A DNA stretch of 64,000 bases from an uncultured Anaerolineaceae bacterium (GTDB taxonomy: Bacteria; Chloroflexota; Anaerolineae; Anaerolineales; UBA4823): assembly GCA_964547225.1 (NCBI GenBank), contig CAZJMV010000113.1, positions 2,543 through 66,542 of the forward strand, written 5' to 3'. The notes beneath the pieces are model-generated. The model was not told the origin of the DNA. It made no database searches and saw nothing but the letters and a program-made list of their open reading frames with translations. Below, one piece after another: positions 5,039 through 48,200 of this stretch. The translations under genes were made by a program, and so were the position numbers. Each line of letters starts with the position of its first letter. The first letter of the stretch is position 1.

Positions 5039-7795
5039 TTATAACGCTAACTCCATCTTCGTCATGCCTTCATCGGTTTCTGAGAAGGTAAAACCAAATC
5101 TTTTCCCTAATGCTTGCATTGATTCATTATCAGAAGTCATTATTGCTTCTAGGCATTTGATTTTCTCTTCTCTTGCGATAGGAATTAATTTTTCCATCAA
5201 CTCGCTTCCAATTCCCATTCCTTGACATAGATCGCTAATTAATAAGCTAAATCGAGCTCGATCAGTCCCATGTAGCTTTGTCATACGAAGAGCCCCCATT
5301 ATGCGCAGTTCACCTTCTTTTGCATCTTCATGATCAGCAATAATTGTAATTTCACGTTCATAATCGCAGTGACAAATTCGGGAAAGGCGTTCATGCGCTG
5401 CTCGATCGCTTAGCAGCATTGGGTGAAGGTACCGTAAGTAAACGCTCCTATCTGAAAGCGTTGCATGAAATTGTACAATTAATGGCTCGTCTTCTGCTCG
5501 GATAGGGCGAATAGTAATATTTTTTCCGTCTTTTGTTTTCCAGTAGCTGATGTATTGAACAGGATAAGGTCGGATAGCGAGCTGTGGTAATTCACTTTCC
5601 TTGACTTCTTTTCCAAAAAGAAGAACACGGGCATCCAAGGATAAGATTTGCTCAGAAGAGGCGATTAGTGGATTAATATCCAATTCTTTAATCCATCGTT
5701 GTTCTGATATCAAATTGCTGAATCTGACTAAAATGCGTTCTAGGTCTTGAAGATTTACTGATTTCTCTCCTCGTACTCCTTTAAGAGCATTATATATCTT
5801 CGTATGTTCCATCATACGTCTTGCTAGGGTAGTGTTGAGAGGCGGGATACCAAGTGAACTATCTTTGAAGACTTCTACAAGGGTACCACCCATCCCAAAT
5901 AAAATGACAGGTCCGAATTGAGAGTCTATGCTACTGCCTAAGATTAATTCGTATCCTTTGAGACTCGCCATTGGTTGAACAGTTACACCTAAGAAATGGG
6001 ATTTGCCAGATTCATCCACTTTTCCAACATGCTCAGTCAAGGTCTTTTTTATTGATGTAAAAGCTTTCTTAACTTCCTCAGCATCATTAAGATTGAGTTG
6101 AACGCCACCGACATCCGATTTATGAGTGATTGTTTCTGAATGGAGTTTTAGTACAACCGGGTAACCGATTTCTTCTGCCGCTTCAATGGCTGCATCAGAG
6201 GTTTTTGCTATCCTTGTTTCGACTGTTGGAATACCATAGGCTGAAAGAAGTTCTTTAGATTCGAACTCAGTTAAAATCGTACGTCCATCTTTGCGCGCAT
6301 CTTCAATTATTTTTTTGGCTTTTTCTGTTTGCGGTGGATTCTTCTCATCGATTGCAATAATTGGTGTCTCGTAAAGCCGTTGAAGGATTGCCGTGTAGTT
6401 AGCCATATAATCAAACATCTGTGCTGCCGTATCGGGATAAGGGAAGGCGGGGATATTGGCTTGATTTAGAATATTTTCTCCTGATGAGACACCATCCCCC
6501 CCCATCCAACTACAGATAATTGGTTTTTCGAGTGAATTCGCGAAGGGAACAATTTCCTGTGCTGTTTTGGTCGGATCGGTCATATCCTGTGGGGTTAGAA
6601 TGACCATCAATCCGTCACTATTTGGATCTTTTGCAGCGATTTCGATTGATTTGGCATATCTCTCTGGGCTAGCATCTCCAAGGATATCCACTGGGTTATT
6701 GTGACTCCATGCGTCAGGAAGAATTTCATCAAACGCTTTCATGGTCTCATCAGATAAGACCGCTAATTCACCTCCGTGTGTGATCAATGCGTCGGTTGCT
6801 AATACACCAGGTCCACCAGCATTTGTGAGTATTGTTAAACGATTACCTTGAGGTTTGGGTTGTTTTGAGAGCACTTCAGCTAAGTAGAATAAATCTGAAA
6901 TCCCGACAACTCGTAAGACTCCACTACGACGAAAAGCAACTTCTAGAACTTCATCACTTCCTGTCAGCGAACCGGTATGGGAAGCAGCTGCTTTTGCTGC
7001 CCCGGCAGTTCGCCCTGGTTTGATCACGATGATCGGTTTAACATTGGCAACTTCTCTAGCTGCAGAGAGGAAAGCGCGTGCATCACCAATCGTTTCCATA
7101 TAAATTACAATGCTTTCTGTATTGGGATCATCTCCAAGATAATAAATAAGGTCACCCCAACCAACATCAAGCATAGAACCTACCGAAACGAAATGACTAA
7201 AACCAACATTCTCACGTAAACTCCAATCTAGGACTGCTGTACATAGTGCGCCACTTTGACTGATAAAACCTACAGATCCTTTGTGTGCCATGGAAGCAGC
7301 AAATGTTGCATTCATCCCGCTGACCGGGCTCATAACCCCTAGGCAGTTAGGTCCGATAATGCGCATTTTGCCACGTTCTGCATGCTCTAAGATTTGATTT
7401 TCTAATTCGACTCCTTCAGGTCCTGTCTCTTTGAAGCCGGCTGAAATAATGATTGCACCTCTAACCCCATTCTCGACACAATCCGAGATGATGCCGGGCA
7501 CTGTTTTAGCAGGGGTTACTATGACAGCAAGATCGACAGGTTCTGGTAAGTCACTGATATGTGGATAAGCTTTGACACCTAATACACTAGCTCTTTTTGG
7601 ATTTACAGGAAATACAGCGCCTCCGAAAGGGTTTCTGACTAGATTCCACATAATCGTTCGACCGACCGAGTTTGGAGTTTCGGATGCACCGATAACTGCA
7701 ACATTTTTAGGAGAGAAAATTGAATTTAATGCGATATGCTTGTAATGAAGTACGTCATGAGCTGGATCATAGGCATGTGTTTTAGCTTTTATCAT
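5039..7795 (-). CDS. Bifunctional ADP-forming acetyl-CoA synthetase-like / GNAT acetyltransferase (Pat/YfiQ-type protein lysine acetyltransferase)
   Basis: 918 aa. It has an N-terminal CoA-binding and succinyl-CoA-ligase-like region ([21 protein letters not shown]), an ATP-grasp section, and a C-terminal GNAT ([14 protein letters not shown]). Confidence 0.85.
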
Positions 7796-14841: not shown

Positions 14842-15519
14842 TTATTCCAGGTTCTTTACATATATCTGCCGAGAAATATCTGGTCCAATTACAATAGTCT
14901 TTTCCCTCTCTGAAACTTGTAATTCTAAATTCTTATCGAAGGGGGAATAGTTCATCACCGTTATGTTTGTGTTTGGAGTTAATCCTATTTCGCTAAGATA
15001 ACGTAAGAGTTCTGGGCTATTATCGTTTACTCTTTGAATAATTACTTTTTGCTTTGAAGTGATTGTAGATAACTGTATCCATTTGGTGGAGGGTAGCTTT
15101 AAATCTCTGGTGGGGATTGGATCTCCATGTGGGTCATGGGTGGGATCTCCAAGAACAATAGCTATTCTTTCCTCTAATTCTTCTGAAATTGAATGTTCGA
15201 GGATATCAGCTTCGGCATGAACCTCATCCCATTTATAACCAAGAATCTGGTGAAGGAACATTTCAATAAGTCTATGATGACGAATGACTTCTAATGCTCT
15301 TGAACGACCAGTATCTGTGAGAATAACGCCGTGATGACTCTGATAACTAACTAAAGGTGGATTGGTACTGGACAACCGCTTGACCATTCCAGTAACAGAA
15401 GCGGGCGTAATATTCATGGCTTCTGCGATTTGGTTTGTACTGGCGCGTTCAGATGTTAAGGTAATTTCATAGATCACTTTTAGATAATCTTCGATGGTTT
15501 GGGTTAATTTATAGGTCAT
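14842..15519 (-). CDS. DtxR/MntR-family metal-dependent transcriptional regulator with C-terminal SH3/FeoA-like domain
   Basis: TIEDYLKVIYEI, a wHTH, IRHHRLIEMFL and the metal-site region THDPHGDPIP. Lies 31 bp downstream of the FeoB membrane gene. Confidence 0.85.
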   Translation of the reverse strand: MTYKLTQTIEDYLKVIYEITLTSERASTNQIAEAMNITPASVTGMVKRLSSTNPPLVSYQSHHGVILTDTGRSRALEVIRHHRLIEMFLHQILGYKWDEVHAEADILEHSISEELEERIAIVLGDPTHDPHGDPIPTRDLKLPSTKWIQLSTITSKQKVIIQRVNDNSPELLRYLSEIGLTPNTNITVMNYSPFDKNLELQVSEREKTIVIGPDISRQIYVKNLE

Positions 15520-15550
15520 ACTATTTCCTAAGTTTATTGTGATGATCTGA

Positions 15551-16984
15551 TTAATAAATCCCTGTTACTATTCTCCATATTTGCGCCACAAAGAAAGTAA
15601 CCAAAAAGCCTAAGAATAAAGGCAGCAAAGAAGCTATTAGTGTCCATTTTATGCTACCAGATTCTTTATAGATCGTGTAAATGGTTGTGCTACAAGGGTT
15701 GTGAATCAAGCTAAAGAGCATAAGGTTGACGGCGGTTAATAATGTCCAATTTCCAGCTTGCAGGATAGTAACAGTATTGTTTTCTCCAGTTTCAAACATT
15801 ACTCCTGCGCCACTTCCATAACTCGACATTCCAGTAACTAATATCGTTAACATTAAAATTGTGGGGATAACAATCTCATTGGCTGGTATTGCGATGATAT
15901 AAGCCAGCAGGATTATGCCATTCAATCCAATTAGAATTCCAAAAGGATTGAGGAAATTGATAATATGTTCTGCAAGCGTGAAATTTTGGATATAAATATT
16001 TGAAACTAACCAAATTACTGCGCCGGCAGGTGCTGCAAATACAATCGCGCGCCAAAGAACAAAAAGAGTACGATCAATGATCGATGTATAGATTGTTTGA
16101 AGAATTCTAGGTGGTCGATAGGGAGGAAGCTCTAAACTAAAGGTAGAAACCTCTCCTCGTAGAATGGTTTTAGATAACCCCCAGGAGATGAGAAATGTCA
16201 AGAGAATCCCCAATAATGCAATACTGATCACTGCCAGTGCGGATATGAAACCTGCAAGATGTGCTGGAACCAAGACCCCGATAAAAAGGGAGGCAATCAG
16301 GATCTGAGTTGGCCATCTTCCATTGCAGAGGGCAAAATTATTTGTAATCATGGCAATAAGTCGTTCACGAGGACTATCAATGATCCTGGTAGCAATAATC
16401 CCGGCTGCATTGCACCCGAAACCCATCATCATGCTCAAGGATTGTTTCCCATGCGCTCCACATTTTTTGAAGATATTATCTAGATTGAAGGCAACGCGGG
16501 GAAGATATCCCAAGTCTTCAAGCAATGTGAATAGCGGAAAAAAAATTGCCATAGGAGGTAACATCACGCTAACCACCCAGGCAGTTGCTAAATATATACC
16601 ATCAATGAACAGTCCGGATAACCAAAAGGGACTATGGATCATTTTCGCTACATGATGTAAAGCTGGATATAGTTTGCCTATTAGGAGATCCGAAAGTAAA
16701 GCTGAAGGATAATTTGCTCCGATAATAGTTAACCAGAAGATGAATGCAAATAGTAATAACATGATCGGAAACCCCCACATACGGCTGGTTACAATATGAT
16801 CTACTGTTCTGTCAAAATCAAATCTAGGTTTTTGTCCGGGTCGAGTTGTGGCACGGTCCGCAATCTGAGTAGCATGGGTGAATGTGGATTCCATAACACG
16901 CTCGTGAAAATCGCCTAATTGCCAGCGTAGCGATTGAGCAAGTTTGATCACATCCTCGGGCTTTTTTTTCTCCATAGTATTCAT
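15551..16984 (-). CDS. feoB: Ferrous iron transporter FeoB, membrane (permease) portion
   Basis: 477 aa. [22 protein letters not shown] followed by polytopic gate-motif regions typical of the FeoB C-terminal domain. Its ATG overlaps the stop of the G-domain ORF (ATGA at 16981-16984). Confidence 0.85.
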
Positions 16985-17859
16985 TTGACTGCCTCAACTT
17001 GGGTTTCAACAACTTGTGTTTTATCCTCTTCAGAGATAACTGATTCCAAAATTCCAATTTCTCCGTTTAAGAATGCTTCAGCAATTCGTTCATCACCATC
17101 TAGTAATCTTGTTGCAACCCAATGTACATTAGGTAATTCAGGATAAAGTTCAGTGATTTCATCAGACAATTTGTAGATTGCTTCCTTTAATTGTGGTGAA
17201 TCATGTTCGATTCGATAGGGTTTGCAAATCGTTTTTCCAGTAGCTACATTGTTTACTTCTTCTAGTAGCCTATCCAACCCTTTTTTCATTCGAGCAATGG
17301 TAGGCACAACTGGAACACCTAAGTCTCTCGCCAACCTGCGCTCATCGATGATCAGTCCATGGCGTTTAGCTTCATCGAGTAGATTCAGGCAAACAACTAC
17401 TCTATCTGTAATTTCTAGGACTTGTAACACCAAATTTAAATTGAGTTCTAATCGGGTTGCATCCACTACGACAACACAAACATCCGGGTGCCCAAATAAT
17501 ATAAAATCACGAGCGATTTCTTCATCAAGACTAGTGGCTAATAAGGAATACGTTCCTGGGAGATCAACGATTTTATAACGATAATCACCATATTCATATC
17601 CACCTTCTGCACGCGTAACCGTCTTTCCGGGCCAATTTCCGGTATGTTGTTTTAAACCAGTAAGCGCATTGAAGACAGTGCTTTTTCCGACATTGGGATT
17701 TCCGGCTAGTGCAACTACAAAATCCCAGTCCTGCATATCAACACCAAGTTTTAATAGATTGGATTTATTATGGATTGGGCAGTTCTGGCAGTTTCCCCCA
17801 GTAAGTTTTACTAAATTGGTACTCCCAAATTGATCTTCTTTCTTGGTTGGTATAGCCAT
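16981..17859 (-). CDS. feoB: Ferrous iron transporter FeoB, N-terminal GTPase plus helical domain, encoded as a separate ORF
   Basis: G1 [10 protein letters not shown]3 DLPG and the FeoB-type G4/G5 region. It also has a ~45-aa N-terminal extension containing CQNCP. Confidence 0.85.
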
Positions 17860-17869
17860 TAGGATTTTT

Positions 17870-18895
17870 TTACTCCTTTGATGTTTCTACACAAATTTGA
17901 GCTGCTTGTTCATTTCTCAAGGCGATCAATGTATCTCTGATGAAATAAGCAGTTGGGTCACCTCCCGGACTATTCATTTCAGTTTTGATGATTGTTCCTG
18001 GTAATATACCTAAGTCCATCATTCGCCGACGCTCCACACCTCTCATTCGGGGGGATATAGTGATTACCTTTCCAAATTGACCGGGTTTTAGAGCACTTAG
18101 CGGAGTACCACGACATTCTTTTTGCATCTCTTTTTCGGAAACAGGTATAACAGATACATTAGCAGCGACAATTGGGGCAAGGATATGTTCATCTTCATTT
18201 CCCCATACGATTATTCTCTGTGCAGTTTTATCTAGAATTCTTATATGCATTCCTGGATAAAAACCTTCTGCAATTAATTGTGAGTATATTTCTTTTGGTT
18301 CATCTTCTAGATGAACGATTTGCAAAGGCTGATCAATTTCCATATTTGTTAATGGTTCTCCACCATGAACAACGAATTCTAAGGAAGCTGTTGGGATTGG
18401 ATCACCATGTGGGTCATGAGAGGGATATCCAAGGTGTGAAGATAATGCGTTAATCTCTTCAACTGTTATTGAATGTTCCTTTTGTTCAGCTAGATCGTGC
18501 CAGTGAGATTCTTGATATCCAGTCTCTTCGGCAAGGTATCTTTCTAATAATCGGTGCGCGCGAATTATTCTCAAAGCATATTCGTTCCCCTTTTTTGTAA
18601 GTGAAAACCGCTCCCCTGTAAGTATTACCAAATCTTTAGATTGTATATCAGAGAGCAATTTTGTAGCATGGGATTGAGATATATTTAAAGCGCCAGCTAG
18701 ACTATCTATTGTTGTAGGATTACCATGCCTCTCACATTTGTGCATTTGCTTCAATGCATCTTCTTGTAGGACTTGGTTGGTGAGTCGCTGAGATCTTTGG
18801 ATGTATCCTACCAAGCCACCTTTTGGGAAAAATAATAGAGCTAGGCTGCTAATCATCAAAGATCCAATCATTAAAGCAAATAAGGGATTTATCAT
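17870..18895 (-). CDS. DtxR-family regulator with an N-terminal hydrophobic anchor and two C-terminal FeoA/SH3-like modules
   Basis: Hydrophobic MINPLFALMIGSLMISSLALLFFPK, then a wHTH, IIRAHRLLERYL and SHDPHGDPIP. The FeoA-like part is LSALKPGQFGKVITI...GILPGTIIK. Confidence 0.75.
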   Translation of the reverse strand: MINPLFALMIGSLMISSLALLFFPKGGLVGYIQRSQRLTNQVLQEDALKQMHKCERHGNPTTIDSLAGALNISQSHATKLLSDIQSKDLVILTGERFSLTKKGNEYALRIIRAHRLLERYLAEETGYQESHWHDLAEQKEHSITVEEINALSSHLGYPSHDPHGDPIPTASLEFVVHGGEPLTNMEIDQPLQIVHLEDEPKEIYSQLIAEGFYPGMHIRILDKTAQRIIVWGNEDEHILAPIVAANVSVIPVSEKEMQKECRGTPLSALKPGQFGKVITISPRMRGVERRRMMDLGILPGTIIKTEMNSPGGDPTAYFIRDTLIALRNEQAAQICVETSKE

Positions 18896-20430: not shown

Positions 20431-22203
20431 TTAGGGATTTTCTTCAGGATTATTGTCGATATCTAGTAAGAGAATCCATCCAATGATTGGACTGTCTTGA
20501 TTCTGATATTCAACAAGCACACATTCCCGATTGAAATTATCAAACCTTCTCTCCATGGGGAGAAATTCTATCGAACTACCCGCTGGTATTCTCCCAGTAG
20601 CTGTATACCCTTCATAACAACCATTTCTCGCCCATACATCCCGGATTGTTATTCCAACGGTTGGGGTAGTCGTAGGAGTGTAGGTTATTGTGGGTGAAGG
20701 ACTAGGAGTCAGCGTTGCTGTGAGGGTTGGTAAGGGTGTTAGGGTATAGGTTGCGGTCGCTGTAGGTGTAGAAGTAGGAGTTAAAGACAGAACATATGAA
20801 TCAAATTGTCCTTTCAACCAAAAACCGATCATGATCGTTATCCCGATCATTAGCAGAATACCAATTATTTTTATCAGATTCATTGAAAGAAAAAATGGGC
20901 TCAGTGTCTTCTTAAGTCGCATAATTTGAGTGTCATCAGGAAAACGTTGACGCACTTCTTGACTGATCTTGGCAGCCTTTCTAGGAAAGTTCTTGTTATT
21001 CTCAAAAGAGATAAATGCTTGATTGATTTCATCTTGATACTGTTCAAATTCAGAAATAAGCTTATCAATTGACTTTGTTAATGGATCAATACCTTCCACG
21101 TTCTTGTCAAGCGTAAGGATCTGCATCACATTTTTTTTCGCCTTTTTTGCAAGTAAAAGACCATCATCGATTGTCGTAGCTCTTTTTGCCTGAGAATAAA
21201 GAGAATCTGCTAGATCCTTCAATGGTGAAATGGCGCGTGGTATAGCAGCGGATAATTGAGGTTTGATACGAAGGATTGCAGGATTTTCACCGTACTCTGC
21301 AATCAACGTATCGAACTCAGTTTTTGCAGCAGCGATCATTTCAGGTTCAATATCAAAACCGCTTATGGAATCCAAAATAGACCGGTACTTATTTTTCAAT
21401 TCGTATAGTTTTTGAGCTTTTTCAGAATATTTAGGTAAACCCGTCATCCTTGCTGCAGTTTCAATGCGTTCGATTGCATCATCAAGGTTGCCATTTTCAA
21501 ACAGCGATAAACCTTCTAGATAAGTTTTTTCTGCATCGATATTTTCCTGTAATTTTTTCTCGAATTCCAATCCTTCTTGCCACCGATGAATTCCATATTT
21601 ACTCAGCGCTTCTTTGGAAGTCTCAATATGTTTCATGGCATCTTCAAAACGACCTGCTCTTGCAGCAGATTGCGCTTTTCCGAAAGCTGAAGCTGCTTCG
21701 GATGGAAGCGCTATTGGTGGAATGTATCCTGTTCTTAAATAATTCTCTGCCTCTTCACGATGTTGTTTTGCTCTTTCCCAACTTGGTTCACGGTAAAGCG
21801 CTTTGTCATAGTTTTTAAGAGCCTCTGCATATCTCCCACTATAAAAATATTTTTCAGCTTCTTCCATATACTCAATTGCTAGAGGATCTCTTGGTTTATT
21901 CGTTTCTTTTTCACTTTTGGTGTTTTGATGGTCCGGTGAACTTTCTTTGGGTTGAATCTGTTCTAATGAATTTTTGTTGTCAGATGCGGGTACTTGGTCA
22001 GAATCCATTTCGTTGATCTTCGACCGATATTTACGTCTAAGTTCTTGTAATAAATCCTTTAATGATTGGTCAATTAAAAGATACTGATCGGATTCAATGA
22101 AATCGCTGATTTCAAGTAGATTCCTTCTAAGGTCAACAATTGAAGTATTGTTTTGAGTGATATCGTTTTCGGCATTTGAAAGCAGTGTATCTAAATCAGT
22201 CAA
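20431..22203 (-). CDS. Single-pass membrane protein: cytoplasmic TPR-like helical region, TM, Pro/Thr-rich linker, small SH3b-like extracytoplasmic domain
   Basis: TPR-like EEAEKYFYSGRYAEALKNYDKAL, the TM segment IIGILLMIGITIMIGFW, the linker LTPTSTPTATATYTLTPLPTLTATLTPSPSPTITYTPTTTPT, then a ~70-aa beta-rich tail (...IIGWILLLDI). No family name recognised. Confidence 0.5.
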   Translation of the reverse strand: MTDLDTLLSNAENDITQNNTSIVDLRRNLLEISDFIESDQYLLIDQSLKDLLQELRRKYRSKINEMDSDQVPASDNKNSLEQIQPKESSPDHQNTKSEKETNKPRDPLAIEYMEEAEKYFYSGRYAEALKNYDKALYREPSWERAKQHREEAENYLRTGYIPPIALPSEAASAFGKAQSAARAGRFEDAMKHIETSKEALSKYGIHRWQEGLEFEKKLQENIDAEKTYLEGLSLFENGNLDDAIERIETAARMTGLPKYSEKAQKLYELKNKYRSILDSISGFDIEPEMIAAAKTEFDTLIAEYGENPAILRIKPQLSAAIPRAISPLKDLADSLYSQAKRATTIDDGLLLAKKAKKNVMQILTLDKNVEGIDPLTKSIDKLISEFEQYQDEINQAFISFENNKNFPRKAAKISQEVRQRFPDDTQIMRLKKTLSPFFLSMNLIKIIGILLMIGITIMIGFWLKGQFDSYVLSLTPTSTPTATATYTLTPLPTLTATLTPSPSPTITYTPTTTPTVGITIRDVWARNGCYEGYTATGRIPAGSSIEFLPMERRFDNFNRECVLVEYQNQDSPIIGWILLLDIDNNPEENP

Positions 22204-22251: not shown

Positions 22252-25200
22252 TCATCGGTGATTAATTAATTCCATGAGATTAGAAAATATGTCGAATAAA
22301 TCATTGCGAAGATTTTTTGCATTTTGATATTCGTTGGAAAGCACTTTCTCTAATAGGTCTTTAATATAATCAGGAAGTCTTTGATCATCGTATGTCCAAT
22401 TTGGATGATATCGTTTGGCTGCATTTTCTACTTCGGTGGATAGGTTAGGACCAAGGGGTAATGCGCCAGCTGCTGATCTCCCTGTGAAAATGTGGTGGAG
22501 TCCTCTGGCGCCAAATTGGACTAAATCGAATTGAATATCTTCTCGTGTTAGACCTTCTGGATGACGTTTGGCGATATTCCAATCGATAATGTGGACACCA
22601 TTATGTTCCTCGCTCCAATAATAATGTAGGATTTTATGATCTCTGTACACAATATTGCGACTGTGTATTTCAGATAAGATATCACATATTTGTATAGCGA
22701 TCACTAAACCATTAATGATGGGTTGAAAACGACCTTTGTTATACCCGATATCGTAGGACTTGATGAGGTTGTCTTCATGGGTAAATTCCTCTAGCGCTAG
22801 GTAAGGAATATAACCATCATTGGTATATTTTTCGATGTCCCACAAAAAGTGATGAACTGAGTCACGCCCATAACGAACAACTTCACCATTAATTTCATGG
22901 GATATGGGCGCAATGCTATCGTCAAATTGATCATTTAAATCATCAGATCTAATAAAACCACTTTCATAGAGATTGATGATACCTGGGATATTGTTTAATA
23001 AGGATAATACTTGGATTTCTTCAATGAATAAAGGTAAGGCATATTCGATTTGATCTGGTCTCATTATTTTTATCGCTACTTGATTGGACCTATTATTCAT
23101 GCCTTTTATCTCACCCTGGTAAACACGGGCGGAAGAGCCTTTGGCTTCAGGAGCCCAGGTATCAAGCGGAGTTTTTAGAGAGATATCTTTATTTTCTCCT
23201 AAAAACCCATAGGATATTCCAAAAAGCGTTGGTTGGATTTTCTCGTTTCTACTAATTCTATTTAGATGTATCTTCTTGCTGGAAGATGAAATGATCGGTC
23301 TATTCGGATCCAATTTTGTCAACCAATTAAAATCTTGGAATCCTTCTTTATTTTTCATCAGAGCTTCTGTTGGATCAATATTATTCCGAAGTTCTCGGAG
23401 TATTGACAGGTTAGTATCCAACCAACTCGCTGGTCCGGTTCTAATTCTAATTTCGCGACCTTCAATTTCACACCGAGTAATGAATTCAATTAAAGATTCA
23501 TCTTTTGCTGGTCCTCTTTTTACGATGTCAACCCATTCTTGTGCACTCTGCATAGCTCTATCTGCACTGAATACTCTAATTCTTTCCGGATCAAGAAGAA
23601 GTAATTCTCGTAAACCAAGACGGGCTGATCCAAACTCTTTCTTGTCCCACTTCTCTAAAATAAAATCAACTTGTAAGATTGTGTTTGAAATTGCATTGGA
23701 CAACTCACTTAAGGAATTTGGAATATAATTTTCTAGAAGATGGATATTGTCTTTTAACTCATCATAGCGAATGTCAGCAAGTGGTGGATCTGGTTCGAGT
23801 TCTACCCATCGTTGGCTGATTTTGTCAAATTTCTCTATTAGTTCTTTGAGTAATTGACCATCGATCTTGTCTGAATGATTGATCGATTTTAAGGCAAATA
23901 TCACCCGGTTTAATTCTATTTTTGGTCTTCTTTTTTTATTGCCTACTGCCAGTTTTCTTACTTCTGGAATGATCTGATCAATGATTGAAGATAGATTTTG
24001 ATATAAGCTTTGTTTTTTTAATTCCCAAATAAGAGAAACCCAGTCTTCATTTATCGTGTATATCAGATATTGGATGATTATGCTATTAGATAACTCTAGT
24101 GAAATAATATCTTTCATGATGGATAAAACATCATGATTCAAAAAAGGAATTTTTGTAGGTAGATTTATTAATTGAGAGATTGATTCCAGGTCATTATTTT
24201 CCAAGTAGTTCTTCGCAAGGGCATTGAAATAATCACTGGTAAGAATAAGATCTGGTATTTCACCGTTAAGAAGGAGGTTTTCTTGGATATTTTGAAGTTC
24301 TATAAAGTCTTTGATGATTGCCGGTTCGGAAGCACGAAATTTGGTTTCTTGCTCTTTGAATTCCTTCAGTTCAGCTTCTAGTGAAATTTTTTTTTCCGTG
24401 ATAATTTCTTTCAGATCAAGTATTCCAGATGTATATACTTTTTCTATTGGAAGATCGTTTTGCCAATTAAGTTCTTCATGTAAATTGTTGGAATATCCAG
24501 ATAGCAATTCACTAAATTCATCTAGAAATTGTTGATAATCATTGAGGATTGTGAATTGCTGATCAAAACTTCTCCCATTTTTATCCACGAATTTTGCATT
24601 ACCAAAATCGATTAGTGTGATCGTGTTAAATCTAGGGTTCCAAAAAATGTGATCTAACTTAATATCATTCCAGATGATTCCATTCATCCGTTGATTTTTA
24701 TAAGTAATTGGATTAACGTGAATTGTTTCTAGAAACTCGATGATATTGTCAATGATACGCAACAGGATTAAGGTAGGGATTTTTCTTTCCTGTATGATAC
24801 GGTCAAGCATCAATTGATTTGTATTATCCAATTTCTCCCTTGGAAATTGATTATTTGGTTGATGATTAAGATGACCAAAGTGTATTGATTTAACAATGAA
24901 ACTAAGATCGAATCCACTAGCTACGGATATGACTATAAAAAATTGGTCGGTTAATCCAGTACCAGATCGGCTTCTGTCTAAAATTTTTGGAGTACGAATC
25001 TGATTATTATTTGAGTTAAGTTGTACGATAGTTTCTAGGATCTTTCCTTCTTGCTCAATTTGGGAAGCTTGTCTTACAATATCACCAGCAAATGAGCTAT
25101 AAGAAGGCTTCTTAAGCACTCCTATTGTTGAGTCTGTAAGCGATTCAACAAGGAACACTTCACCAGCATCACCTGCTCCTATTTTATTAACCAGATTCCA

Positions 25201-25308
25201 GGACTGTTTTTGACCTATAAAGATATGGTTTCGAGACATTTTTTTAATATTATTACTTTGATATCTGTCGTATAAGCTCGGTAAATAATGGTTCAAATTA
25301 TAGTACAA
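22252..25308 (-). CDS. Tandem protein-kinase-like domain protein (no TM)
   Basis: Domain 1 has GAGDAGEVF, GVLKKP, WNDIKLDHIFW and LIDFGNA. Domain 2 has KGSSARVY, QVAIKIMRP, IVYRDHKILHYYW and IIDWNIAK. The true start may be ATG 25239 (MSRNHIF), because the track's first codon is a TTG next to a TATAAT hexamer. Confidence 0.65.
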   Translation of the reverse strand: MYYNLNHYLPSLYDRYQSNNIKKMSRNHIFIGQKQSWNLVNKIGAGDAGEVFLVESLTDSTIGVLKKPSYSSFAGDIVRQASQIEQEGKILETIVQLNSNNNQIRTPKILDRSRSGTGLTDQFFIVISVASGFDLSFIVKSIHFGHLNHQPNNQFPREKLDNTNQLMLDRIIQERKIPTLILLRIIDNIIEFLETIHVNPITYKNQRMNGIIWNDIKLDHIFWNPRFNTITLIDFGNAKFVDKNGRSFDQQFTILNDYQQFLDEFSELLSGYSNNLHEELNWQNDLPIEKVYTSGILDLKEIITEKKISLEAELKEFKEQETKFRASEPAIIKDFIELQNIQENLLLNGEIPDLILTSDYFNALAKNYLENNDLESISQLINLPTKIPFLNHDVLSIMKDIISLELSNSIIIQYLIYTINEDWVSLIWELKKQSLYQNLSSIIDQIIPEVRKLAVGNKKRRPKIELNRVIFALKSINHSDKIDGQLLKELIEKFDKISQRWVELEPDPPLADIRYDELKDNIHLLENYIPNSLSELSNAISNTILQVDFILEKWDKKEFGSARLGLRELLLLDPERIRVFSADRAMQSAQEWVDIVKRGPAKDESLIEFITRCEIEGREIRIRTGPASWLDTNLSILRELRNNIDPTEALMKNKEGFQDFNWLTKLDPNRPIISSSSKKIHLNRISRNEKIQPTLFGISYGFLGENKDISLKTPLDTWAPEAKGSSARVYQGEIKGMNNRSNQVAIKIMRPDQIEYALPLFIEEIQVLSLLNNIPGIINLYESGFIRSDDLNDQFDDSIAPISHEINGEVVRYGRDSVHHFLWDIEKYTNDGYIPYLALEEFTHEDNLIKSYDIGYNKGRFQPIINGLVIAIQICDILSEIHSRNIVYRDHKILHYYWSEEHNGVHIIDWNIAKRHPEGLTREDIQFDLVQFGARGLHHIFTGRSAAGALPLGPNLSTEVENAAKRYHPNWTYDDQRLPDYIKDLLEKVLSNEYQNAKNLRNDLFDIFSNLMELINHR

Positions 25309-25445: not shown

Positions 25446-25532
25446 TAAACGTATATAAACCGTCAAGCATGAATGTTCGATATTGAGTATCATAATAGGC
25501 GAAATGCGATTTCTCTTCTTCTCCTCCTTAGA

Positions 25533-25561
25533 GAGAGCCGGGAGCGGCGTACCCGGCTCTC
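25533..25561 (-). terminator. GC-rich 10-bp stem hairpin downstream of the ATL gene (a terminator, or part of a small RNA or leader)
   Basis: GAGAGCCGGG (25533-25542) pairs with CCCGGCTCTC (25552-25561) across a 9-nt loop. It stands out in AT-rich surroundings. There is no clean U-run on either strand. Confidence 0.35.
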
Positions 25562-25644
25562 GTTAGTTTAATGTCCTGATCGATTGGTTTGTAAACCTTT
25601 TTTAGTACTTTGAATTATTAGTCTATTTTCGTTAGCTTTTTATC

Positions 25645-26085
25645 TCATTTAATTCTTATTGATTGATCATACTTCCAACCAAAGATATTTTGGTTAATTT
25701 TTCCATTCGATTCAAATTTCACGCCTTCTTTTATGAGTAATTCCTTCTGGATTGTAAAACTATCACCTTTTCGATAACTGATTTCACCTTTGGAATTGAT
25801 CACTCGATGCCACGGCACATCATTTGGGCACTCTGATAAAGCTTTTCCAACCCATAGGGGGGCAAGGAAAAAATAACTACTTGGATTAATATTAGAGGGT
25901 GAAGAAATCATGGCAGCGATACCTCCATATGTGATGACTTTTCCAACAGGTACTCGGCGAACAATATCCCATACCTTTTGATAATATTCCTTTTTCCAAT
26001 CCTGAGGTGGATTTTCTTTAACCATTTTTCTAGCTCTTTCCAGAATTATACAATAATTATTTTTAATCGCTCCTTTATTTTCCAT
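25645..26085 (-). CDS. Alkyltransferase-like protein (MGMT-fold DNA-binding domain without the catalytic Cys)
   Basis: VPVGKVITYGGIA, and PWHRV (25801-25815) where MGMT has PCHRV. The start may be ATG 26025 (MVKENPP), giving 126 aa. Confidence 0.75.
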   Translation of the reverse strand: MENKGAIKNNYCIILERARKMVKENPPQDWKKEYYQKVWDIVRRVPVGKVITYGGIAAMISSPSNINPSSYFFLAPLWVGKALSECPNDVPWHRVINSKGEISYRKGDSFTIQKELLIKEGVKFESNGKINQNIFGWKYDQSIRIK

Positions 26086-26099
26086 ATTCGTATTTGTTA

Positions 26100-26128
26100 T
26101 TCGGAAATAACATCTTCTCAGATATAAT
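26100..26128 (+). promoter_or_regulatory. Possible murJ promoter placing the transcription start at or next to the ATG (leaderless)
   Basis: TATAAT at 26123-26128 lies only 7 nt before ATG 26136. A weak -35, TTCGGA, sits 17 nt upstream. TATAAT-like hexamers are frequent in AT-rich DNA. Confidence 0.3.
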
Positions 26129-26135
26129 TATAAAA

Positions 26136-27722
26136 ATGACTATCTCAGAGAATAATCGCCAAATTGCACGCGCAGCAGGAACTGTGATGTTTGCTTTTGT
26201 GCTTGGTAACCTAGTAGGATTGGTTCGTCAAATCCTAGTTGCAAATGCGTTTGGCACCCAAGCCGAAATTGAAGCTTTTAATGCTGCTAATCGTGTTTCA
26301 GAGACATTGTTCAATTTGATGGCTGGTGGAGCGCTTGCTTCAGCCTTTATTCCTACCTTCACAGGTTTGTTATCAAAAGGTAAACAGTCTAAAGCTTGGC
26401 GATTAGCTTCTTCGATTGCTAATCTAATCTTTCTGATAGTGATGATCATTTCAATATTAACTGCCATCTTTGCACCCTGGATTGTGAGAAATTTATTAGC
26501 TCCTGGATTCGTTGTTGATCCAGAGAAAGAGTTATTAACAATCCAATTATTAAGACTAATGTTACCATCAGCTTTATTGTTTAGTTTAAGTGGGTTGGTT
26601 ATGGGGGTTTTGAATTCCAATCAAATCTTCCTGTACCCAGCTCTAGCTCCATCAATGTATCAGTTGGGATTGATCTTTGGAGTATTGCTGTTATCTCCCC
26701 GATTAGGAATTTATGGATTAGCTTTTGGTGTTATTATTGGAGCTTCTTTGCACCTCTTGATTCAGGTGCCGGTATTATTCAGATTAAACGGGAAATACTA
26801 TCCAACACTTGGATTACGATTTGATTATGTACATGAAGTAGCTAGATTGATGGCGCCAAGATTATTAGGGGTTGGGGTCGTTCAAATTAATTTTTGGGTT
26901 AACACTCGACTTGCATCACAATTTGCAGAAGGAAGTGTGACTAGTTTAGTTTTAGCATTTACTCTAATGCTAATGCCCCAAGTTGCAATTGCCCAATCCA
27001 TTGCCATCGCGGCTATGCCGACTTTCTCTAGACTGATTGCATTGGGCAAGCAAGATGAAATGCGGAGTTCGCTCGCCTCAAGTTTAAGGGGAGTGTTAAT
27101 CTTGTCAATTCCTGCATCGGTTGGATTGATATTATTACGCAAACCAATTATTACTTTGCTCTACCAGCGTGGTGAATTTGATATTCACTCAACTGAATTA
27201 GTTGCATGGGCGCTGCTTTGGTATGCTCTTGGACTTTTTGGTCATGCTTTAGTGGAAATCTTATCTAGGGCTTTTTATTCTTTGCATGATACAAAGACGC
27301 CAGTATTTGTTGGGATTATTGCGATGAGTTTCAATATAATCCTCAACTATGCGATATCTTCATTCTTCTTGAAGATAGGATGGATGGCTCATGGGGGATT
27401 AGCCCTCGCTAATACCATAGCTACTTCTATTGAAGCATTAATCCTAGTTTTTCTTATGCATCGTCGTATACAAGGTATTAATGCAAAATTTATTTCCAAT
27501 GGAGTCTATAAAACCATGATTGCTTCTTTGATTATGGGATTAGGTTTGATTATTTGGATGCATTGGACAGAATATAACTCTATCTGGTTGATTTCGATAG
27601 GTGGTATTGTTATTGGAGGTATGATATTCTTATTTGTGACGATTATTCTTCGTTTAGAAGAAGTTGATCTAATGATGAAATTTGGATTTTCACGTATATC
27701 TAGATTGTTTATATTGAAATAG
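26136..27722 (+). CDS. murJ: Lipid II flippase MurJ
   Basis: IARAAGTVMFAFVLGNLVGLVRQILVANAFG, ~14 TM segments, and RAFYSLHDTKTP, all characteristic of MurJ/MviN. Start moved to ATG 26136. The ORF track starts at TTG 26094. Confidence 0.85.
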   Translation: MTISENNRQIARAAGTVMFAFVLGNLVGLVRQILVANAFGTQAEIEAFNAANRVSETLFNLMAGGALASAFIPTFTGLLSKGKQSKAWRLASSIANLIFLIVMIISILTAIFAPWIVRNLLAPGFVVDPEKELLTIQLLRLMLPSALLFSLSGLVMGVLNSNQIFLYPALAPSMYQLGLIFGVLLLSPRLGIYGLAFGVIIGASLHLLIQVPVLFRLNGKYYPTLGLRFDYVHEVARLMAPRLLGVGVVQINFWVNTRLASQFAEGSVTSLVLAFTLMLMPQVAIAQSIAIAAMPTFSRLIALGKQDEMRSSLASSLRGVLILSIPASVGLILLRKPIITLLYQRGEFDIHSTELVAWALLWYALGLFGHALVEILSRAFYSLHDTKTPVFVGIIAMSFNIILNYAISSFFLKIGWMAHGGLALANTIATSIEALILVFLMHRRIQGINAKFISNGVYKTMIASLIMGLGLIIWMHWTEYNSIWLISIGGIVIGGMIFLFVTIILRLEEVDLMMKFGFSRISRLFILK

Positions 27723-27770
27723 ATAATGATCGATTAACGATCAGAGGTAGATCTGGATTAATATCAAAAG

Positions 27771-28949
27771 ATGAGATTTTGGGAAGATATTCCGTTAAAA
27801 ACTAAAATTTTATTCGTTCTTTTCATTGTCATTCTTTATTGTTTTATTTTAATGATCTTCCTTAGAGTTCGTCAGCAAAACATAAATATGTCAATCGTTG
27901 ACTGGATAACGAGTTCAAAGGAAGTTAATTCGCTTGAGGTACCTTTGCCAGAGCAGGGAAAGGCGAATATTATCTTGGAATTTGAGATGGGTGTTTTTAA
28001 TGGACCTGGTGATGATTATGATTTGTTGGGAGTAATAGAGAAAGGGGTAAATGTTCAAATTGAGGGAACTTCTCAAGATGGGAATTGGTTAGCAATTAGA
28101 ATAGACAAGGAAGATAATATTATCGGATGGTTTAAGAAGGAATCTCTCCAAGTGGAAAATATTGCATTATTACCCGTCCTTAGTAGTTCTGGGGAAGTTA
28201 TCTCAATAAGTACACCTACTCCACTAGTTCCATCTGTCACTGCGTTAATGAAAGCAAGCATTTTGTCTGGACCAGGTTCTACTTATGATGAGCTAGCTAT
28301 TTTAGAAGTTGGTAAAAGTGCAGAAGTGGTTGGAAAAAGTCAGGATGAGCAATGGTGGGTAATTAAAGTACCTTATTTAGATCAAGGTATTGGTTATATA
28401 TCTGCTGAGGAAGTTATTGCAGAATATGTAGATTCAGTACCTGTGGAAGAAATTCCAGTCGTTACAGCAGTGATGAATGTAAATATTCGAAGTGGGCCTG
28501 GTTTAGATTTTAGGATAATTGCTTTGCTTGAAAATGGACAATCAACAACAATATTAGGAAAGAGCGCTGATGAATTGTGGTGGTTTGTGGAAGTACCGGA
28601 AAGCGCTGAAAAAGGCTGGATATCGATAGATTATGTTGTTAGCAATAGTCTTGGAGATGTGCCGGTTATTAATGTTGAAGAAGATAATCAAAAAATTAAT
28701 ATCCCAACGCCAGATTTAAATCAGCCAAGCTTATCCACAAGTGTAAACGTGAATGTACGTAGTGGACCTGGCGAAACATATGATGTATTAACTAGATTAG
28801 AGTATGGAAAGACGGCTTTTATTGTAGGTATTTCTTCTGATAATCGCTGGTGGGCGATTAAGATCCTGAATTCACAACAAGAATATGGTTGGGTTTCAGG
28901 GGATTATGTCATCGTGATTGATGTGGAAGATGTGCCAATATTGGAATAG
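27771..28949 (+). CDS. Membrane-anchored protein with four bacterial SH3 (SH3b) repeats
   Basis: N-terminal TM ILFVLFIVILYCFILMIFL. Four repeats of the pattern (V/I)(N/L)xRSGPG...G....(V/I)xGxSxDxxWWxI(K/E)V...GW(I/V)S. Confidence 0.7.
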   Translation: MRFWEDIPLKTKILFVLFIVILYCFILMIFLRVRQQNINMSIVDWITSSKEVNSLEVPLPEQGKANIILEFEMGVFNGPGDDYDLLGVIEKGVNVQIEGTSQDGNWLAIRIDKEDNIIGWFKKESLQVENIALLPVLSSSGEVISISTPTPLVPSVTALMKASILSGPGSTYDELAILEVGKSAEVVGKSQDEQWWVIKVPYLDQGIGYISAEEVIAEYVDSVPVEEIPVVTAVMNVNIRSGPGLDFRIIALLENGQSTTILGKSADELWWFVEVPESAEKGWISIDYVVSNSLGDVPVINVEEDNQKINIPTPDLNQPSLSTSVNVNVRSGPGETYDVLTRLEYGKTAFIVGISSDNRWWAIKILNSQQEYGWVSGDYVIVIDVEDVPILE

Positions 28950-45256: not shown

Positions 45257-48200
45257 TTATGGTTCTTGATCGCTAATTTGAACGACTCGATTTCTACCGG
45301 CTTGTTTTGCTTTATAAAGAGCTTGGTCAGCTTTAGATATCAGAATATCTAGATCCTTTTTTACTCTCGAATGTGAACCCTCGAAATAGTCGATAGAATA
45401 AACTCCAATGCTAACTGTAATATTCAGTTTAATCGATTTTTCTTTAATTGTTGTGGTAAAAATCGTTTGACGAAGTCTCTCTGCCGCTTGAAAAGCGTGT
45501 TCTTTATCTGTTTCAGGTAATATGATGATAAACTCTTCGCCTCCATACCTACCGATAATATCGTTATTTCGCATAGCGTCTTGACATATCTCGGCTAGCT
45601 TTTTAAGAACTAAATCACCGACTTTATGTCCATACTCATCATTGACGATTTTGAAATGATCAATATCCAACATCATGACTGATAATGAATGATGATATCT
45701 TCTAGAACGTATGATTTCTTTTTCAGCAAGATCTAAAAAGTTTCTGCGATTATGAAGTTCAGTCAATGGGTCAGTGATCGCTAATTGATGAACTTCTTCA
45801 TATAATAATGTATTCTCTAATAAAACCGCTACTTGATCAGCAAAACTCAAAGCTAATCGTGAATGCTCTTGCGTAAATGCATTCGGTTTTGTACTATCAA
45901 GTGAGATTATGCCAATAATTCGATCCTGAGCAACGAGAGGAATGCCCATCCAAGCTAATATTCCTTTATGTGGTTCTTTGAGAAATACTGGATAGGCTTC
46001 AGGAGCATTATCCAAAATGAAGGGTTCTTCTGTCTCAAAAACAATCGCGGATGGGTTTTCTCCACTGATTGGAAATTTTAATCCGATAATTTCCGATAGA
46101 TTATCAAACCCTCTCCCACCTACGATTTCAAGAACATCATCGTGCAATAGTTGTACTGAGGCGCTATCATAGGGAACGACATTATTTAATTGTTCTAGTA
46201 TTCTCTTGATAGTTTCATCTTGTCGCAATGTTGTGGCTACAGCTGATCCAGCTAGGCGGAGTGTCTCTGCTTCTCTAGCTCGTTTTTGAGCGCTATCTAT
46301 AGTTCTTGAATTCGCTATCGCTAGCGCAATTTGTCTGGCTGCTTGTTCCCCATTATTAATTTCTTCTACTGGAAAAAAGTGAGCTTCATCGAAAACAGCA
46401 AAAATCACACCTAACTCTTGCATGTTAGCTATTAATGGGAGTCCTAAAATGGTATTCCCTTTAAGGTTTTTTGCTAATTCCTTATATGGTTCGTTTTCTT
46501 CATTCCTGATGATCTTGGTTTTTCCTGAGTGGAGAATTTGAGTAATTAATGGATCGATATTCTCTGTTTGTTCGTGATGTTTCCCTAATCTTGAATTGTA
46601 AGATGATGTATATCGAAGTTTCCTGTTTGTTTCATCAAAAAAGAAGAAATAGCAATTGTCAGCGTTAGTTAATTCCCCCATTTTTTTAACTAACACATTG
46701 GATAGTTCATGAAAATTTGAAATTTCTATCGCTGCTGAAGTGATATCATTTAACAAGCTTAAAAATATTTCTCTTTTTTGAAGAGTTTTTGTTTGTTCGT
46801 TTAAAGCATTTTGGGATTTGACTTGCTCAGTGATGTCTCTTTTTACAGCACCATAATATACTATTTCTCCATTCAGATTTCTAATTGGAAATATTGTCGC
46901 AGATTCATGGAATAATTGACCATTCTTCCTTCTGTTGATAATTGAGCCATTCCAAGTTGATCCATATGAGATTTTTTCCCAGAATTGTGCATAAAATTCT
47001 TTATCTTGATATCCACTTTGTAAGAAGCGTGGATTTTTTCCTATAACCTCATCTCTTGAATATCCTGTTGATGATTCAAAATGCTGATTCACATAAACGA
47101 TATTCCCATTAAGATCTGTAAGCATGATGGTCTCTGAAGCTTGTTCAATAATTGCCACCAGTGTTTCTAGTTCGGCTTGAGATTCTTTCGTGGCTGTAAT
47201 ATCTTGAATAGTTCCCTTAATAGATTCTAATTTTCCTTTTAAATCTCTATAGATTGTTGACCGAATGATAAAAAATCGATCTCCTGACCCTTTTTTATAT
47301 CGATATTCGTATTCAAAATAATCTTGTTTTTTAGAATTTACTATTGAAGTGATTGAATCCCATAAATCGGTAATGTCTTCAGGAGGTAAAATCAAGTTCA
47401 AGAATTCAATCACATTATAGATTTGTTTTTGGCATGATTTATTCTTTAATTTAGGAGTTAATTCAATAAATTCTTTACTAATAAATATGGTTTGATTATT
47501 ATGATTGTATTCGAAATTACCAAGCTTTGCTAATTTCATGGCAATTCCGAGTTGTTCTTGACGAGCTTGAATTAGTTCAAGATATCTTTTATGCTCTTCA
47601 ATATATTCACAATTTTGTTCTGATGAGGAAACTTGAGAGGCTAGCATAGTGGCAATATTCAAGTCTTGATCGTTAAACCGATCTATTTTTTGACAATGTA
47701 ATTCCATTATGCCAATGAATTTATCACTTGAAATTAAGGGCAAAATCATGACTGATTTTGTCTCAGATAATTTAATAATAGGAAATGTTGATAAATTATT
47801 TGCAATATTATTGATGATAATCCCATGCTTCAAATTTGATGCTTCGTCAATCACAGATTTTTGTATAATAGGTGGTAAATTATGTTTAGTTAAATTTTTC
47901 CATCCATGTTGATCATATGATCCATGCATCCTAATTGTCTTTTTTGCTTGATCGATAAGTAAAATCGAAGCATGATAAAGATCGAATTTGAAGTATGCGA
48001 ATCTAAGCACCTCTTTGAAAATTTGATCGATGTCAAAAATCTTTGAGATAGTAAGACTAATTTCTGCTATGGCTTTTAATGCATCAGCTTGATTTTGTAA
48101 TTTATCTTCGTATAGTTTATCAGCTGTAATATCTGAGACAGTGATGATTGAAAATAATATTCGATCCGAAGGGGTTCTAATTTTTGACAGATTTATTTTA

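Follow-up and report, generated by a model that had tools for sequence, protein, structure and literature searches.

What does a gene encode when its product carries two kinase-like domains, each with a histidine where the kinase catalytic loop normally has an asparagine? The gene lies at 22252-25308 of a 64,000-nt stretch of DNA from an uncultured Anaerolineaceae bacterium (contig CAZJMV010000113.1, positions 2,543 to 66,542 of the forward strand), and this whole stretch is referred to here as the window. Few enzyme folds have been studied as thoroughly as that of the protein kinases, and the catalytic-loop Asn, ordinarily a ligand of the second Mg2+, is counted in its invariant core. A preliminary description, prepared from the letters and a list of open reading frames (ORFs), had seen at this locus a soluble protein of 1018 amino acids (aa) with two atypical kinase-like domains, the second possibly a pseudokinase. 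We find that both ends of the protein are very divergent protein-kinase-like domains, that the histidine is nearly constant across a family restricted to the Anaerolineae, and that the gene is paired with one for a TPR-containing membrane protein. A membrane-associated dual-kinase signalling module is our best overall reading of the locus, and belief and doubt in it are about evenly balanced.

The ORF is on the minus strand and runs for 1018 codons from a TTG start at 25308; the plus-strand frame over the same interval is riddled with stops. All 20 aligned homologues start at the position of an in-frame ATG at 25239, and the identical gene in three independent public assemblies was called as a 995-aa product each time. 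As the homologue starts and the three independent gene calls agree on this ATG, translation almost certainly begins there, which yields a protein of 995 aa rather than 1018. The longer ORF first described exists, but its strand had been left unstated and its likely start missed. Residues are numbered here from this ATG. All eight motifs quoted in the preliminary description were found in the minus-strand translation: GAGDAGEV (21-28), GVLKKP (40-45), WNDIKLDHIFW (190-200) and LIDFGNA (209-215) in the N-terminal half, and KGSSARVY (700-707), QVAIKIMRP (720-728), IVYRDHKILHYYW (863-875) and IIDWNIAK (884-891) in the C-terminal half. The protein has no transmembrane segment by hydropathy scan, in agreement with the soluble product first proposed; the highest 19-residue window (1.77) falls in the beta5/hinge region of the kinase core.

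Independent sequence and structure searches converged on a kinase fold for the two ends. The Pfam Pkinase model (PF00069) matched the whole protein at 41 bits, summed over three stretches, against a gathering threshold of 31.7, and matched 21 of 21 aligned family members at E<=0.01, 12 of which also matched APH. A full-length AlphaFold2 (AF2) model built from the 21-sequence alignment had a mean predicted local distance difference test (pLDDT) score of 84.8 and a predicted template-modelling score (pTM) of 0.52. Foldseek returned 1419 PDB matches to this model at E<=0.001, a count that does not distinguish the N from the C domain as the aligned part; all 50 of the matches listed were kinase entries, one titled merely 'Structure of phosphotransferase', and the top matches were Mycobacterium tuberculosis PknB (5u94 and 1mru, target TM-score 0.70-0.72). 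When the family profile was compared with PDB sequences, the best match to the N domain was CK2alpha (CK2alpha'; E about 7e-5), with G-I-I-W-N-D-V-K-P-D-H-I-F-W...I-D-W-G aligned on G-I-M-H-R-D-V-K-P-H-N-V-M-I...I-D-W-G, and the best match to a separate C-domain profile was PknB (E 1.5e-5), with V-Y-R-D-H-K-I-L-H-Y-Y-W...I-D-W-N-I-A-R aligned on I-H-R-D-V-K-P-A-N-I-M-I...M-D-F-G-I-A-R. These alignments place D192/K194/H197 and D211-F-G of the N domain on the HRDxKxxN and D-W-G of CK2alpha', and D867/K869/H872 and D886-W-N of the C domain on the HRDxKxxN and D-F-G of PknB. Therefore, H197 and H872 occupy the metal-binding Asn position, and D-F/W-G-N and D-W-N are the equivalents of DFG. Pfam, Foldseek and the profile alignments thus concur that both halves are kinase-like, as the preliminary description had held.

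The two domains differ in how much of the C-lobe they retain. In the AF2 model the N domain ends about 50 residues past D-F-G-N, soon after helix alphaF, and is without alphaG-alphaI. The C domain has alphaF-alphaI; only about 9 residues separate D-W-N from the P-E-G position, and just 31 of 112 sequences keep the APE Glu. NCBIfam gave no meaningful match to the protein; PrkT, LanKC and PknB_PASTA scored 10-12 bits against cutoffs of 280-575.

To assess conservation, we pooled the domains recovered by the homologue search, a search of a representative library, and the ORFs of 59 related loci, which gave 151 distinct sequences for the N domain and 112 for the C domain. His takes the place of the canonical metal-binding Asn in 150 of the N domains and in every C domain, so lineage noise is excluded as the source of the substitution; the D-W-N that stands for DFG in the C half is equally constant (111-112 of 112). 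The replacement of Asn by His in both halves and the D-W-N in the second had been read correctly from the single sequence. The catalytic-loop His and the D-W motif thus define the family. The beta3 Lys, the HRD-position Asp and the DFG Asp are all retained and near-invariant in both domains, E741 and D905 are each present in 112 of 112 C domains, and the alphaE His (H174, H859) and alphaF Asp (D234, D905) typical of eukaryotic protein kinases (ePKs) are also kept. At position 212, Trp occurs in 150 of the 151 N domains, and the window protein supplies the sole Phe.

The suggestion that the two halves are paralogues gained support without being settled. Over the region from alphaE to DFG, the N and C halves aligned significantly with each other by BLASTP (E 7e-4) and by profile-profile comparison with hhalign (E 8e-7 over 64 columns, 30% identity), and both carry three derived characters: His at the Asn position, [FY]-W after that His, and Trp after the DFG Asp. 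Descent of the two domains from an ancient duplication is plausible on these sequence grounds, but not proven.

Between them lies a segment of about 420 aa that had been described as a helical linker. It is rich in Leu, Ile, Glu and Lys and is all-alpha in the AF2 models, as expected from that description, but it is a conserved domain rather than a mere spacer, with about 30 invariant positions that include EPDPP, WDPDRxR and many Trp, Arg and Pro residues. Modelled alone, it reached a pLDDT of 86 and a pTM of 0.76. The domain had no match in Pfam, none among PDB sequences (best E 0.35), and no Foldseek neighbour in the PDB (best E 0.32, TM-score <0.2), where only vague resemblance to TPR/ARM-like solenoids was seen. 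To judge from the models, it is apparently a novel alpha-helical domain.

A word-indexed search recovered 21 proteins including the query, the other 20 being full-length or near-full-length homologues of 33-42% identity, nearly all about 1000 aa long and named in the databases as 'hypothetical protein' or 'serine/threonine protein kinase'. In an exhaustive profile search of 1.84 billion representatives, 526 proteins reached E<=1e-3 and 187 clusters E<=1e-30. With so many homologues, chance cannot account for the feature, yet the family is small and isolated from the bulk of Hanks-type kinases. We also scanned one genome per GTDB species with two peptide patterns and found at least 55 loci, one per genome in at least 55 species genomes, at 28-58% identity (best tblastn segment). 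Among the matches listed, all were in metagenome-assembled genomes (MAGs) of Chloroflexota, with the finer labels Anaerolineae, Anaerolineales, Anaerolineaceae, Anaerolinea and Brevefilum. The family is real, uncharacterised and restricted to one lineage, the Anaerolineae. At five of the loci in long-read MAGs (L022, L023, L026, L040 and L059) the kinase gene is spread over 2-4 overlapping ORFs, probably because of assembly frameshifts rather than as a real pseudogene.

The preliminary description knew of no characterised bacterial counterpart, and we found none in the database names or in two recent papers on bacterial kinomes. The main text of an atlas of bacterial Ser/Thr kinases (bSTKs) describes no tandem or Anaerolineae-specific family and names Chloroflexota once, under CCM1 (10.1101/2025.01.12.632604); a review of bacterial pseudokinases leaves the family unmentioned (PMC12599244). 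Literature searches for the motif strings (DxKxxH and variants) gave no match, and those aimed at bacterial tandem kinases turned up work on plants and animals only, without a bacterial counterpart. Because the canonical Asn is absent and, in the N domain, the GHI subdomain as well, we place the family as a divergent branch of the protein-kinase-like superfamily, outside any described bSTK family.

The kinase gene has one constant companion. A gene for a 590-aa protein follows directly on the same strand in the window, and 51-52 of about 60 loci have a homologue of it directly downstream on the same strand, the gap having a median of 28 bp. When the flanking ORFs were clustered all against all, this gene formed the sole other widely shared family, the next clusters being antisense artefact ORFs. 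Its product comprises a cytoplasmic TPR/helical region, one transmembrane helix, a Thr/Pro-rich linker and a small ectodomain; Lys/Arg residues precede the helix, and the Thr/Pro linker and two invariant Cys follow it. Residues 150-185 of the cytoplasmic region form a near-invariant segment, YLR[TS]G.IP..ALP.EA....GKAQSA.R, and T158, S179, T344 and S414, all cytoplasmic, are kept in at least 95% of 26 homologues. They could be sites of docking or phospho-acceptors. The ectodomain had no Pfam match, alone or in the 26 homologues, and no match among PDB sequences; by eye it looks SH3b-like, though without a profile match.

The same parts recur in three arrangements. In the fused form, represented in the window, the N kinase, middle domain and C kinase make up one chain. 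In the split form, found at about 22-25 loci (22 by automatic count), the N kinase and middle domain carry a helical extension of about 340 aa (930-996 aa in all), and are followed, after a median gap of about 25 bp, by a separate gene for a 336-aa C kinase and then by the TPR-transmembrane gene. The extension closes with a conserved HPL..W motif in the split loci L027-L056. It was unrelated to the middle domain, the C domain, the N domain and the TPR protein (hhalign E>0.09), and its sole relation was to the third form (E 5e-20). In that form, a chain of about 1.4 thousand residues joins the N kinase, middle domain and helical extension to a transmembrane helix and an ectodomain of about 400 aa, which had no Pfam match, and a separate C-kinase gene follows. 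One such locus, L061, has a complete next gene, where a TPR-transmembrane protein without an ectodomain is encoded after the C kinase. The ectodomain thus resides on the TPR-transmembrane protein in the fused and split forms, and on the N-kinase protein in the third. Following Rosetta-stone logic, these fusion and fission variants imply that the N-kinase/middle unit, the C kinase and the TPR-transmembrane protein act together at the membrane. Since split and transmembrane-fused forms exist, we regard the kinase modules as separable subunits of one system, not as an intramolecular pair of the JAK type.

The reading that we favour, a membrane-associated dual-kinase signalling module, combines these observations. 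A cytoplasmic 995-aa protein presents two divergent Hanks/ePK-like domains joined by the conserved helical domain, and both would be active, or at least nucleotide- and metal-binding, phosphotransferases. The D-x-K loop suggests Ser/Thr-type chemistry, presumably on a protein substrate, and the near-invariance of the catalytic residues indicates strong purifying selection on the full phosphotransfer set in both domains. The catalytic-loop His may contribute to the metal site and might favour Mn2+ or another transition metal over Mg2+. To judge from gene order and the fusions, one or both kinases would dock on the TPR scaffold of the membrane partner, whose ectodomain, probably of a disulfide type, would supply the input signal. 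The kinase and its TPR-transmembrane partner would then amount to a receptor kinase divided over two or three polypeptides, and the module is conserved across the Anaerolineae.

Several observations weigh against this reading. Scanned separately, as had been proposed, the single domains fall below the Pkinase cutoff (27.3 bits for N, 29.8 for C), and the C domains of three other members scanned alone gave no Pkinase match. The N domain of L002 scored 31 bits against an APH (PF01636) cutoff of 23.2, and the best member reached E 9.4e-8; the N domain of the window protein, scanned alone, had no APH match. At a pTM of 0.52, the full-length model is a poor guide to how the domains are placed relative to each other. 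An N domain that lacks alphaG-alphaI and a C domain with so short an activation segment are atypical for kinases with protein substrates, and the exchange of Asn for His could put an end to Mg-ATP chemistry of the canonical kind. A kinase-TPR complex would have gene order and fusions as its only basis. Finally, no PP2C, FHA or other usual Ser/Thr-signalling gene is conserved nearby or present in the scanned parts of the window.

We considered whether one or both domains might instead be non-catalytic, serving as a nucleotide-binding pseudokinase scaffold or allosteric switch in the manner of JAK JH2 or the plant tandem kinase proteins (TKPs). The missing metal-binding Asn in both domains, the Asn in place of the DFG Gly in the C domain, the single Gly in its AxGSSARV loop, its short activation segment and its variable APE Glu would all suit this explanation, and the invariance of the residues would equally suit a role in nucleotide binding alone. 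CASK is active despite the loss of both metal ligands; by analogy only, it shows that a kinase can keep its activity, Mg2+-independent in CASK, when the Asn and the DFG Asp are replaced. It is a eukaryotic CaMK in which Cys stands at the Asn position and the DFG Asp is missing. Against a non-catalytic role, the beta3 Lys, alphaC Glu, HRD Asp, catalytic-loop Lys and DFG Asp are all kept in both domains, whereas the bacterial pseudokinase families show degraded motifs (PMC12599244). In the second half, where the preliminary description had suspected a pseudokinase, K724, E741, D867, K869 and D886 are unbroken across the 112 distinct sequences (K724 with two gaps), which speaks against that suspicion. 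The classical definition of a pseudokinase is loss of the VAIK Lys, the HRD Asp or the DFG Asp (PMC12599244), and neither domain falls under it because all three are kept in both. We consider a non-catalytic role unlikely.

A bolder version of the dual-kinase module holds that both domains are active, that the His, [FY]-W and D-W together create a metal site and nucleotide pocket undescribed in ePK-like kinases, and that the domains, the novel helical domain and the TPR-transmembrane partner with its ectodomain make up a class-wide envelope-sensing machine of the filamentous Anaerolineae. We regard this as doubtful. If true, the enzymes might depend obligately on Mn2+, Fe2+ or Zn2+, for example, or use a different nucleotide, and the family would constitute a new, self-contained branch of bacterial transmembrane phospho-signalling.

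The APH matches raise the alternative that these are small-molecule, lipid or glycan kinases (APH/Kdo/choline-kinase-like) acting at the membrane on an envelope precursor instead of on proteins, and positioned by the TPR-transmembrane protein. APH matched 12 of the 21 members and, in one case, an N domain well above its cutoff, and the N domain shares with APH a minimal C-lobe; the very short activation segment of the C domain, the membrane association of the module, and the position of the locus beside murJ and an SH3_3 protein gene in the closest relatives point the same way. The catalytic loops argue otherwise: both domains have the D-x-K typical of Ser/Thr kinases, in W-N-D-x-K-x-x-H and Y-R-D-H-K-x-x-H, rather than the H-x-D-x-x-x-x-N of APH. 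The alphaE His and alphaF Asp are kept, PknB and CK2 are the best structural and sequence neighbours, and murJ accompanies the gene at only about 11 of 59 loci. We therefore find action on a small molecule rather improbable.

Kinase folds can also carry out other reactions, for example the AMPylation or glutamylation of SelO and SidJ, and here the His could have acquired a new catalytic role. The invariant additional His residues in or next to the catalytic loops (H868 and H872 in C, H197 in N) and the isolation of the family in sequence space are compatible with this; however, the canonical phosphotransfer residues are complete and at canonical positions, and no likeness to SelO or SidJ emerged from Pfam, NCBIfam or PDB searches, which makes such chemistry very unlikely. 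An anti-phage or immune sensor resembling plant TKPs or the bacterial PD-T4-6 and mad6 systems, to which the two-kinase layout and weak partial PADLOC matches (mad6, E 6e-12 over about 60 residues; PD-T4-6, E 7e-11) might point, is the least credible explanation and was rejected as an assignment, since those matches cover 45-90 residues of generic kinase motifs only, the chromosomal context is conserved, with a single locus in each species genome, a conserved partner and, in the closest relatives, housekeeping genes (xseA, murJ, ogt-like), and a phage-integrase fragment lies near just one variant locus, L060. One locus per genome, a constant partner and a housekeeping context argue for vertical inheritance rather than a mobile defence island.

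Like PknB, the domains have a bilobal fold with the beta3 Lys, alphaC Glu, alphaE His, catalytic Asp and Lys, DFG Asp and alphaF Asp, and a cytoplasmic kinase is paired with an ectodomain and a segment that spans the membrane once. Unlike PknB, they have His for Asn, WND/YRD for HRD and DWG(N)/DWN for DFG, two kinase domains are present, the activation segment is far shorter, and the transmembrane helix and ectodomain belong to a separate TPR protein (or, in one variant, to the N-kinase protein). Unlike the PASTA/PknB receptor kinases, the family has no PASTA repeats, and the NCBIfam PknB_PASTA_kin model scored 10 bits against a cutoff of 450. The N domain shares the rare D-W-G and the alignment GIxxxDVKPxxxxxD...IDWG with CK2alpha, which keeps the canonical Asn and a full C-lobe; the identity spans about 35 residues and indicates kinship at superfamily level only. 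JAK JH2-JH1 and plant WTK1/Yr15 likewise have two kinase-like domains per chain. In the Anaerolineae proteins, however, no domain is degenerate by classical criteria, the domains are about 420 helical residues apart and occupy separate genes at about 22-25 loci, and there is no sequence kinship to those tandems beyond the superfamily. In the main text of the bSTK atlas, the kinases with fused TPR are PknG, Strep1/2, GN-NS1 and Myxo1 (10.1101/2025.01.12.632604). Their TPR is C-terminal on the same chain, whereas here it is a separate membrane protein.

With a strictly conserved His for the Asn in two domains that otherwise keep their catalytic residues, the family is a natural experiment in how a kinase active site uses metal and nucleotide, and a probe of how reliably sequence rules name pseudokinases. 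The fused, split and transmembrane-fused variants are ready constructs with which to see which parts interact. Anaerolineae are abundant, poorly cultured filamentous bacteria of digesters, sediments and wastewater, and to our knowledge essentially nothing is known of their signalling. The module should be clearly worthwhile for kinase biochemists as well as for Chloroflexota biology. The features of the locus are collected in Table 1.

Table 1. Features of the kinase gene, its partner and neighbours in the window, and of the transmembrane-fused relatives (given in the coordinates of their own loci).
Feature	Coordinates	Strand	Evidence or remarks
Dual kinase-like coding sequence	22252-25239	-	995 aa; stop codon at 22252-22254
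N-terminal minimal kinase-like domain, aa 1-262	24454-25239	-	Pkinase 27.3 bits; CK2alpha profile match; AF2 secondary structure
N-domain Gly-rich loop GAGDAGEV, aa 21-28	25156-25179	-	G23, G26 151/151
N-domain beta3 Lys K43	25111-25113	-	151/151
N-domain putative alphaC Glu E64	25048-25050	-	151/151
N-domain catalytic loop WNDIKLDHIFW, aa 190-200	24640-24672	-	D192 150/151, K194 149/151, H197 150/151, W200 147/151
N-domain D-F-G-N, aa 211-214	24598-24609	-	D 150/151, G 144/151, N 150/151; consensus D-W-G-N
All-alpha middle domain, aa 263-685	23185-24453	-	Invariant EPDPP, WDPDRxR; pLDDT 86, pTM 0.76
C-terminal full-length kinase-like domain, aa 686-995	22255-23184	-	Pkinase 29.8 bits; PknB E 1.5e-5; AF2
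C-domain Gly-loop equivalent AKGSSARV, aa 699-706	23122-23145	-	G701 109/112
C-domain beta3 Lys K724	23068-23070	-	110/112, remaining two are gaps
C-domain catalytic loop YRDHKILHYYW, aa 865-875	22615-22647	-	D867, K869, H872 each 112/112
C-domain D-W-N, aa 886-888	22576-22584	-	D886 112/112, W887 111/112, N888 112/112
Co-transcribed partner gene, 590 aa	20431-22203	-	48 bp after kinase stop; AGGA-type ribosome-binding site
Most conserved cytoplasmic core of partner, aa 107-260	21424-21885	-	TPR repeat
Partner transmembrane helix, about aa 437-463	20815-20895	-	Hydropathy 2.54
Predicted extracytoplasmic domain of partner, ~75 aa	20434-20658	-	C529, C561 invariant
ogt-like 146-aa protein, DNA_binding_1 domain only	25645-26085	-	
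Divergent murJ + SH3_3-repeat protein pair	26094-28949	+	
Transmembrane-fused relatives of about 1.4 thousand residues	L060:988-5247, L061:6415-10860, L062:123-4388		

Beyond the partner gene, the surroundings of the kinase gene are shared in its closest relatives only: the upstream xseA/B, ogt-like, murJ and SH3_3 genes and a downstream M20 peptidase gene each recur at 4-11 of 59 loci. The arrangement of the ogt-like gene with the murJ/SH3_3 pair (25645-28949) was seen at about 6-11 of 59 loci, and on this count a conserved cell-wall operon (murJ, SH3_3, ogt-like, xseA) was dropped from consideration. Rfam and tRNA scans of the window found nothing, and in a scan for promoters and terminators the counts did not exceed those of shuffled sequence. 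At 25530-25570 on the minus strand, about 75-105 nt past the stop codon of the ogt-like gene (25645-25647), there is a G+C-rich inverted repeat, gagagccgggtacgccgctcccggctctc; it might serve as a terminator between the ogt-like gene and the kinase operon, and was not among the terminators that the simple scan listed.

Three further loci in the window, all on the minus strand, stand apart from the kinase module. A gene at 45257-49141 encodes a 1294-aa protein in which an N-terminal 7TM region (HisKA_7TM) is followed by PAS and three GAF domains and, at the C-terminus, a GGDEF diguanylate cyclase domain. A ferrous-iron transport cluster occupies 14842-18895, where separate genes encode the GTPase (16981-17859) and the Gate/FeoB_C membrane part (15551-16984) of FeoB, and two DtxR-type proteins that fuse Fe_dep_repr_C to FeoA flank the pair. 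At 5039-7795, a 918-aa protein joins an ADP-forming acyl-CoA synthetase-like region (CoA_binding, Succ_CoA_lig, ATP-grasp_5) to a C-terminal GNAT domain, the architecture of a Pat-type protein lysine acetyltransferase.

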